A stretch of DNA of 64,000 bases from Octopus vulgaris (taxonomy: Eukaryota). The translations under genes and the position numbers were made by a program. Where the stretch lies: NCBI GenBank assembly GCA_951406725.2, contig OX597842.1:14818001-14882000 (forward strand), given 5' to 3'. Below, piece after piece: positions 19,801-63,499 of this stretch. The notes below the pieces were generated by a model. The model saw only the letters and a list, made by a program, of their open reading frames with translations, had not been told where the DNA came from and made no database searches. Numbering within the stretch: position 1 is the first letter of the stretch; the number at the start of each line of letters is the position of its first letter.

Positions 19801-22800
19801 GTCCAAATCCAGTGAACGGAGGTCGTTTAGAAAACGTCCTTACTTGAAAAATGATCCCCGTCCACGCACGTTTAAACTGCCTTGCTTGAGCAAAACAATG
19901 ATGAGAGAAATGGGAAAACAAAATGATGCACAACTTACTTCTTGGGTTGCGGAGAGGGTGAATGGTTTCTCTCACCCTTCTCGGTGGTTGTAGGAGTTTC
20001 CACGATCAGGTTTCGTATAAACTTTTGGTTATTGTTCTTTGGAAATTTCCCAGCGCAAAGGGGTAGATTTTGTTTTCAAGAAATTAAGGCGTTGTTACTT
20101 ATGCTGAGTATTTGTATTTGAGGTGAAGCGTTAGGTGCTGTGATCTTTTGGTGTGATGTTAGTAGTTTTTTGTATGTATTTCATTAGGGCTTCAATATGT
20201 GGATTGCAGGGAAATTTACGAAGGTGATTTCGAAGGGGATATTTGTATGGCGTGTGGTGCGGGTGGTGCTGGCAGCGGTATTGGTGGTGATGGTAATTTT
20301 GGTGTTATAGAAGATAGTTGTGTGTATGAGTTGTGGGGAGGTGCTTGGATGGTGTCCTTCATGCATTTTTTCCATTTAGGGACTTCGCTCAACTAGTTTT
20401 TGTTTCCTTCTCAGGAAGTATCTCCTACTTGTTGCTCCTCTTCTCCTTCTTTGTCTTCTTTTTCTTCTTCTTGTTCTTCTTCTTCTCCCTCGCCTCCTCC
20501 TCCTCCTCCTCCTTCTTCTTCTTCTTCTTCTTTTTCTTCTCTTTCTTCTTTCTCTTCCACTTCTTCTCCTTCTTCTTTTTCTTCTCCTTCTTCTTCTTCT
20601 TCTTCTTCTTCTTTTTCTTTTTCTTCTTCTTCTTCTTCATCATCATCATCATTAACTACTTCTTCTTCATTATCTTTTTCTTTTTCTTACCATAAATGTT
20701 CTTCTTGACACAATTTTATTTTCCAGGGATTTGAGTTTTAACGATATCCAAGCAATCAACGAAAAAACTTTCCAAAATCTCTCCAGTTTAAAAACTCTGT
20801 AAGTTGAATCAATCTTCTTTTATAGTTTTTCACTGAAGATATCTTCCTAAATCGTAATGTCTTCCCATACTTCAATTTAAGGTCTACATCCGTCTCTCTA
20901 TACATGCATTTTATTGTATTTTGATGTTTGTGAATGTGAGTCTGGGTCCACTTTTAAGATAGGAGATATATGAGATCGTGGTAATTAAGGGGAACATCAA
21001 TTCCACTACGTGTCTCTGTCTAAGGACGAGTTTGTTATCATGTGTGTATAATATTATATTAGCATGTGTGTATAATGTGTACGGCGTTTACCTTTAGATC
21101 GATGCTGAGTAACTGCCTTGAATAACACTTCGGTTTGTGTATTTAGCACCAGAGGTTTCATACGCCCTTTTCTGAACACATCTCCTACTTATTGCGTTTG
21201 ATGTTGTTGTTGTTGTTCTTCTTTCTTTTTTTCTTCTTCTCCTTCTTCTTCTTCTTCTTCTTTCTTCTTCTTCTTTCTTCTTCTTCTTTCTTCTTCTTCT
21301 CCTTCTTCTTCTTCCTCCTCTTCTTCTTCTTCCTCTCCTCCTTCTTCCTCTTCTTCTTTCTTTTTCTTCTCCTTCTTCTTACTTTCTTCTTCTTTCTTCT
21401 TCTTCTCCTTCTTCTTCTTCTTCTTCATCATCATCATTATCATCATCATCATTTTCTTCTTACTTTCTTCTTCTTCTTCTTCTTCTTCTTCTTCTTCTTC
21501 TTCTCCTTCTCCTTCTTCTTCTTCTTCTCCTTGTTCTTTCTTCTTCTTCACTTTATCTTCTTCTTCATCTTCTTCTTCTTCTTCTCCTTCTTCTTCTTCT
21601 TCATCATCATCATTATCATCATCATCATTTTCTTCTTACTTTCTTCTTCTTCTTCTTCTTCTTCTTCTCCGTCTTCATCTTCTTCTCCTTGTTCTTTCTT
21701 CTTCTTCACTTTATCTTCTTCTTCAACTTCTTCTTATTCTTATTCTTCTTCTTCTTCTTCTTCTAGACATATCCATCATCACAACAAAATCTGCGAATCC
21801 GCATCGTTATCATAAGAATGAAAATGAACATCATCTCCCCATCATCTGCATCATAAGATCCTTGTTATGAAGTCTCATAATATTTTCATCTCCTTTGTTT
21901 CATCTTTATATTCATCTCTGACTTCCCCGCCCGCCATCTCCTTCATTTCTTCCTCTTCCACTTCCTCCTCAGTAATAACCATCGCCGAATTCATCATTGC
22001 CCTTATCATCATCAATATCATTTATTTTCGCAAATTACTCCTATCAGATCCAGGATCTTCAACACTATCATCTTCATCGCCACCACTATTAACAAGCTTC
22101 AACATCATCTTCATCATCGCCAAGAGAAACACCACCGCAGACATCATCTTCATCAGAAGAAGAAACATACCAATCACCATGAATATTAGAATAATTAACA
22201 TCAACACCGTTACCCCCATCATCAACATCATAATTTCCTCATCAACACTACCACAAAATTTTCTTCCCTGACTCATTATTATCAATACCACCTCACTAAC
22301 ATTATCATCACCATCATTACCAGCTCCTCACGTTCGTAATCTGATTTCCATCTCTTCTATCACCGAATTGATTTGCCATTCTCTTTAACATTCTGTCAAA
22401 TCGGTTACGTAAATTTCTTTTCTTCTCAATTTTATGTTCCAGGGATTTGGAGGATAATAATATCCAAGAAATAAAAGTAGGAACATTCCAAAATCTGTCC
22501 AATTTAACAAAACTGTAAGTTGAATCTGTTTCCTTTTATAGTATTTCCTTGATGATATACTTGTAAATCTGTAATATTTTCCCATCCTTCCATTTAGGGC
22601 TCCGACATCCGTCTTTCTAAAGATGTATTTTATTGCTTCTCAATCTGTGTGTATGTGAGTGTGGGCCCATTTCTGAGATTTGGGATATATGCGAGTGTGA
22701 TACTTGAGGAGAAATATTTAGTGCATGCATATGTAATGTCTGTGTATGAATAAGTGTATGGCAGCGTATTAACACGTGTGTTTGTAATACGGTGTGTATA

Positions 22801-63499: not shown

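Follow-up and report, generated by a model that had tools for sequence, protein, structure and literature searches.

Germline gain and loss of one-repeat exons as a probable source of variety in the LRR arm of an octopus adhesion-GPCR-derived gene

Introduction

A 64,000-nucleotide stretch of the 2.8-Gb Octopus vulgaris genome (contig OX597842.1, 14,818,001 to 14,882,000; hereafter the window) carries a long tandem array of exons, each encoding one leucine-rich repeat (LRR). The array raises the question of whether its variety arises in RNA, through the choice of cassettes, or in the genome, through their gain and loss. We consider it probable that the array behaves as a germline accordion under diversifying selection, with RNA that likely contains most live cassettes in order and probably shows some single-exon skipping.

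Frame symmetry of the cassette array

Between 20727 and 63499, searching for AG-exon-GT units and then with a profile derived from them recovers 18 intact LRR cassettes with consensus splice sites. All 18 are 72 nt long and in phase 2, begin with A (15) or G (3) and end in CT; acceptors are CAG in 18/18, and donors are GTAAGT in 17 and GTAAGC in one. Each of the 153 forward donor-acceptor pairings among them rebuilds a leucine codon (CTA in 150, CTG in 3). The initial annotation had described 72-nt exons with a G or A start, a CT end, leucine rebuilt at every joint and near-identical splice sites, and this description is borne out. Its wider statement that any pairing works holds for the 153 forward pairings of intact cassettes and fails at seven truncated stubs with strong acceptors. 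Among 149 intact 72-nt modules of the paralog set, 103 start with A and 46 with G, while 145 end in CT and 4 in TT, a CT or TT end being part of the filter that defines the set; TT-ending modules joined to an A or G start yield TTA or TTG, which is still leucine.

The cassettes are copies of one module and therefore have a common phase, which reflects descent from that duplicated module and neither chance nor independent design. Frame symmetry by itself is no evidence for alternative splicing, because human genes, too, show an enrichment of LRR exons that are 69-87 bp long and preserve the frame, according to the available text of PMC6642158. The array also extends past both ends of this interval, with one further cassette at 4766 and, past the end of the window, six intact cassettes and the terminal LRR exon. 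The 18 cassette sequences in the interval are all distinct from one another, so an assembly artefact is unlikely as the source of the array; the exact copy number in the 1.25-kb units that follow the window may be inaccurate.

The features of the window are as follows (all on the forward strand; letters in brackets give the exon type).

4766-4837, +: LRR cassette E1, first of the array, upstream of 20727-63499
20727-20798, +: LRR cassette E2, intact
22443-22514, +: LRR cassette E3, intact
27824-27895, +: LRR cassette E4, intact; exon-only contig cover, with reads of paralog type
28954-29025, +: LRR cassette E5, intact
32070-32141, +: dead cassette, acceptor and 5' part gone
32700-32771, +: weak-donor cassette (GTCTGC), use uncertain
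39276-39347, +: dead cassette, mutations in acceptor and donor
39919-59217, +: pair of tandem blocks, 9.8 kb each and 97.8% identical, containing cassettes, introns and transposon fragments
42633-42704, +: dead M-type cassette with donor ATAAGC, of which the copy at 52223 remains intact
42992-48071, +: intact cassettes at 42992 (R), 43902 (S), 45480 (D), 46442 (S) and 48000 (D)
45404-45440, +: truncated stub with a strong acceptor; others at 47924, 55001, 57536, 60032, 60753 and 63352
52223-57683, +: intact cassettes at 52223 (M), 52582 (R), 53474 (S), 55077 (D), 56057 (S) and 57612 (D)
60829-63499, +: intact cassettes at 60829 (D), 61815 (S) and 63428 (D)

Four modules between 20727 and 63499 are thus damaged (32070, 32700, 39276 and 42633). 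Six of the seven stubs precede a D-type exon by 76 nt; splicing into them would produce a 148-nt exon whose LRR frame contains a stop, making them possible poison acceptors. Contigs covering 52150-55250 contain no joint to the stub acceptor at 55001.

Mobile and simple repeats are interspersed with the cassettes. An LTR-retrotransposon-like gag zinc-knuckle/aspartyl protease fragment (41000-41470 and 50590-51060, both on the reverse strand) was copied along with the 9.8-kb block. At 29249-31962, two inverted-repeat pairs of about 200 and 336 nt flank a GIY-YIG-like ORF (29526-29966, reverse strand) and other ORFs; these elements have high contig cover and are likely mobile. A LINE-like fragment with an endonuclease Pfam match lies in an intron at 17105-17848 (reverse strand), and by resemblance we take the intron fragments at 48507-49052 and 58104-58649 (both reverse strand) to be LINE-like as well. 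Introns between 20439 and 63893 hold trinucleotide microsatellites with a strong strand bias (sense TTC, TAT and TCA), duplicated with the cassettes.

Gene model and domain architecture

The signal-peptide/LRRNT exon is found in flanking DNA, 2.6-2.8 kb before the window begins, and the gene runs 44 kb beyond the window to a frameshifted exon for the first transmembrane helix (TM1). On a 38-exon scale, the model comprises the signal exon, 26 LRR exons and 11 downstream exons, with a predicted frame of 1233 aa; 37 modelled exons form one open frame as far as TM1, where a one-base deletion is followed by a stop. Downstream of the LRR exons come, in order, exons for an LRRCT, a cysteine-rich domain, an HRM-like region, GAIN and GPS.

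Two hallmarks of adhesion GPCRs are present. The first is a long adhesive N-terminus, made up of a signal peptide, an LRRNT (a weak Pfam match on the gene's own exons), 26 LRR exons, an LRRCT, and Ly6/uPAR-like and HRM-like domains; the cysteine-rich domain of a relative resembles the Ly6/uPAR fold in a predicted structure (TM 0.68), and the HRM-like region is matched by PF02793 in relative P0006. The second is a GAIN-GPS region, in which the GAIN exons match named relatives and the GPS exon matches PF01825 (60 bits, E 2.9e-16). The translation contains an HL|T-type GPS site, a putative autoproteolysis site. Among named proteins, Octopus 'ADGRG6-like' models come closest, with up to 95% identity, and a full-length O. 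bimaculoides relative (P0020/P0027) runs from LRRs through GPS and 7tm_2 to a C-terminal Death domain after the 7TM. The gene is a truncated member derived from adhesion GPCRs. A GRL101/LGR-type rhodopsin receptor was ruled out by the GPS exon and the class B 7TM.

A protein search with one exon of the window as query returned no match. The family has at least 39 members, judging from the 39 genomic matches of the terminal LRR exon. Elsewhere, at G000:C9:28.19-28.89 Mb, class B 7TM genes without introns form a dense cluster, with more than 20 PF00002 matches in long open frames.

Genomic gain and loss of cassettes

The initial annotation proposed that symmetry makes exon gain and loss neutral to the reading frame, and the block duplications, dead cassettes and live-exon counts from 5 to 48 per fetched paralog confirm it. 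Duplication is visible at two scales, in the 9.8-kb block copies of the window and in the 1.25-kb tandem units beyond it. Cassettes die by splice-site mutation, and dead modules are copied along with live ones (gene E holds six copies of one dead module). Counting the weak-donor cassette and the terminal exon, this gene has 27 live LRR exons, and six paralogs have 34, 48, 11, 5, 12 and 7; dead LRR exons number 1-10 per gene, and cassette order differs among paralogs. These comparisons draw on 11 typed arrays, several of them partial, out of at least 39 genes. Paralog E (G000:C29:14074276-14226404, reverse strand) holds about 58 LRR modules over 150 kb and includes a 69-nt exon variant that also keeps the frame.

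Unequal crossing-over and gene conversion may be the engine of these changes. The LRR arm of the receptor probably varies both by genomic duplication and loss of one-repeat exons and by fast change at the predicted binding face.

Change at the predicted concave face

A minimum spanning tree based on intron distances linked the duplicated modules, and codon differences were counted per linked pair, the concave face being defined as the six codons that the standard LxxLxLxxNxL register would place there. Across 15 duplicate pairs of this gene, replacement differences at concave-face codons amount to 35/217 and silent ones to 0/53, set against 3/604 replacements at other codons and 26/3150 differences in introns. 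Across all fetched genes (149 modules, 121 pairs), concave-face replacement reaches 12.6%, versus 2.2% at other codons and 2.4% in introns. In both comparisons, building the tree on intron distance depresses the intron baseline, linked pairs are partly dependent on one another, and the variable codons were initially picked out by eye. The replacement excess falls at exon codons 1, 3, 4 and 23. Silent changes at codon 3 are raised too (8.5/51), which points to gene conversion as a contributor. The likely cause of the excess is selection together with gene conversion; the former could be positive selection driven by ligands that change, whether microbial or neural.

Splicing of the cassettes

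Evidence on splicing comes from short-read contigs of runs presumed to be RNA, which derive from other animals, carry paralog-type alleles and cannot give exon number per molecule. At 27200-33000, one of four runs (X9) covers E4 and E5 far above the introns and joins E4-E5, E4-E4 and E5-E2, the latter two at a depth similar to that of the consecutive join. Runs X1, X2 and X8 hold no E4/E5 exon-exon joints, and X1 spans introns and looks like DNA, which says nothing on expression. At 52150-55250, four exons are covered and introns hardly at all in 4/4 runs, with joints at exon ends. The contig alleles match paralogs B and E, the R exon departs from the window at two positions in every covering contig, and none of the contigs is a transcript assignable to this copy.

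The exon-to-exon joints counted all fall on cassette exon ends. Among 16 listed junction types, 12 join live neighbours in fetched genes; the cassettes are therefore strung in series and not picked one-of-many. One further type joins neighbours of which one is dead in the assembly, and three (E4-E4, E5-E2 and R-R) join exons that are neighbours in no fetched gene. The junction 52653 to 55077, which looks like a skip of the S exon, connects consecutive exons in genes B and E. At allele level, one R-D join would pass over an intact exon of gene E. The count treats R-M and R-T as one ambiguous junction and leaves out an S-like repeat join, in which only 67 nt of 810- and 918-nt contigs fit and which belongs to a distant paralog, as well as joints off exon ends and loose ends with mixed-contig consensus or untypable sequence. 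Since E4-E4 and E5-E2 repeat an exon or run backward, they imply either circular RNA or arrays that differ in the animals concerned. The R-R join and the one R-D join could be true skips or haplotype differences. The adjacencies left unexplained could lie in a paralog outside the fetched set; for E4, the analysis took in all five close copies.

Predicted isoforms in relatives add a second line of evidence. An O. bimaculoides family member is annotated with isoforms X1-X4 of 617, 593, 593 and 593 aa, and X2-X4, as annotation models, each lack a different whole 24-aa repeat of X1 with no other mismatch. Because these three isoforms each drop one LRR, single-exon skipping is likely in the family, at a somewhat lower confidence than we give to the accordion as a whole. 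Isoforms X1-X4 of another member in O. sinensis differ outside the LRRs, and three of them share the whole LRR region; O. bimaculoides 'decorin-like' isoforms also differ outside the LRRs. Gene models with full arrays exist in relatives.

Could combinatorial splicing, which the initial annotation considered possible, nevertheless be the main source of diversity, with subsets of cassettes differing per molecule or cell and one gene yielding a Dscam-scale repertoire? Perfect frame symmetry would permit it, arrays of 25-48 cassettes offer wide scope, each exon type has several partners in the contigs, the R-R join and one R-D join could be forward skips, and a relative has three annotated single-skip isoforms. 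Against this, genomic neighbours explain 12/16 junction types, donors are consensus in 18/18 cassettes, the annotated isoforms drop one repeat each and no more, and three O. sinensis isoforms of another member have the entire LRR region in common. E4-E4 and E5-E2 cannot be skips in any fetched array; the animals concerned probably have different arrays, or make circular RNA, and this weakens the candidate skips too. Docking- or selector-like complementarity was not found either, as a minus-strand self-BLAST of the window returned transposon-like inverted repeats and microsatellites alone, a search that short pairings with G-U could escape. Dscam1-like combinatorial diversity finds no support here, and we regard combinatorial splicing as the main source of diversity as unlikely. 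Under the germline accordion, RNA would string most live cassettes in order, with low-level single-exon skipping as a minor second layer, and this copy would be expressed.

Loss of the 7TM

This copy has no TM2-7 exons up to the next gene, and hence no class B (7tm_2) domain there. Within the 764 kb examined, TM2-7 exons occur solely in neighbouring genes A and B, and a LINE lies behind the truncated TM1; the class B 7TM is retained in these neighbours and in relatives. The TM1 truncation is common to three genes with different LRR arrays, and the other two also lack TM2-7 in the stretches fetched. The product of this 7TM-less copy would be a secreted or loosely tethered ectodomain. The frameshifted TM1 exon is 96-100% identical in three paralogs (G000:C29:14925860, 15553420 on the reverse strand and 13461094 on the forward strand). 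Identity to the closest 7TM-bearing paralog falls to about 75% 3' of the GPS exon, which suggests that a recombined 3' end has spread from gene to gene.

A decaying pseudogene could also account for these losses, its symmetry and expansion being by-products of recombination in a repeat-rich cluster. The TM1 frameshift and stop, the LINE after it, the absence of TM2-7 exons before the next gene and the dead cassettes all suit such decay, and the R-exon allele of this copy appears in no contig of the four runs, presumed RNA from other animals, that cover 52150-55250. Decay sits poorly with 37 modelled exons that are all open in one frame to TM1, with an identical truncation in three genes that differ in their LRR arrays, and with the youngest duplicates of this gene, which differ almost solely at concave-face codons, a pattern unexpected under neutral decay. 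We think it improbable that the copy is simply decaying, to much the same degree as the combinatorial reading.

A broader two-layer octopus system may be envisaged, in which dozens of adhesion GPCRs and secreted 7TM-less forms bear LRR arms that vary by gene and haplotype and whose cassettes are, in addition, skipped or repeated in transcripts cell by cell. This is an unlikely scenario; if true, immunity or neural self-recognition would draw on a repertoire of isoforms produced in a way that neither Dscam nor VLR uses.

Comparison with known systems

Agnathan VLR genes are incomplete in the germline and are completed by somatic copying from intronless donor cassettes. It is most improbable that the octopus cassettes are donors for somatic DNA rearrangement in lamprey VLR style: although the LRR modules are hypervariable and dead or partial cassettes lie near live ones, the gene is continuous and complete, its cassettes carry splice sites of their own and are spliced together in contigs, and an incomplete germline gene flanked by a donor array is absent.

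Vertebrate ADGRA2/3 (GPR124/125) place LRR, HRM and GAIN before the 7TM and have few LRRs and an Ig domain. The octopus gene differs in having tens of LRR exons and a Ly6/uPAR-like fold; its relatives carry PF26588, which one source names the ADGRA2/3 GAIN.

The gene family itself is already published. Ritschard et al. 2019 (PMC6408891) describe, in the text available, an octopus-specific expansion of adhesion GPCRs, group 3, with LRRs in 5/22 sequences and expression mainly in the axial nerve cord, suckers, skin and gills. Group 3 and the family analysed here have in common the GPS, LRRs in some members, tandem clustering and signs of positive selection, along with a class B 7TM (here in paralogs) and a Death domain (here in the O. 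bimaculoides relative P0020). Assignment of this gene to group 3 is putative and goes by these matching features of domain content, the Death-domain relative included. Exon structure, LRR-exon copy-number variation, site-level selection and 7TM-less copies, all found here, do not appear in the available text of PMC6408891, and a literature search conducted mostly by title, with few subscription papers covered, found no paper describing the octopus LRR exon architecture. Public gene models hold the family in fragments only. Frame-symmetric LRR exons are common and say little alone; what matters here is the combination of traits: the octopus receptor family is young, its arrays run from a few to about 48 LRR exons, the predicted binding face has diversified strongly, and 7TM-less copies recur. 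The family is thereby a tangible candidate for variable recognition among cephalopods.

Among vertebrate LRR genes, NLRP3 skips single LRR exons to make alternative isoforms, of which two are major, from a stable array (available text of PMC6642158), whereas arrays differ several-fold between young octopus paralogs. Arthropod Dscam1, like the octopus gene, is a cell-surface recognition gene with tandem duplicated exons; its choice is mutually exclusive, one exon per cluster, in the consulted parts of PMC8042237, PMC7430681 and PMC10084454, and its domain number is fixed, whereas neighbouring octopus cassettes are spliced together and array length varies. Joined neighbour cassettes in paralog-type contigs and full-array models in relatives speak against mutually exclusive choice here. 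Brown algal ROCO genes, as far as the accessible text of PMC3341825 and PMC11378527 describes them, have one 72-bp phase-2 exon per LRR; these exons are shuffled, the concave side is under positive selection, splice variants differ in LRR content, and pseudogenes are numerous. The octopus array likewise has a symmetric phase-2 72-bp exon per LRR, reshuffling among paralogs and apparent selection at the predicted concave face. ROCO proteins are ROC-COR GTPases of an unrelated lineage, whereas the octopus gene encodes an extracellular receptor arm; as an analogue and not a homologue, judged by these shared features of the arrays, brown algal ROCO is a better counterpart than Dscam1.
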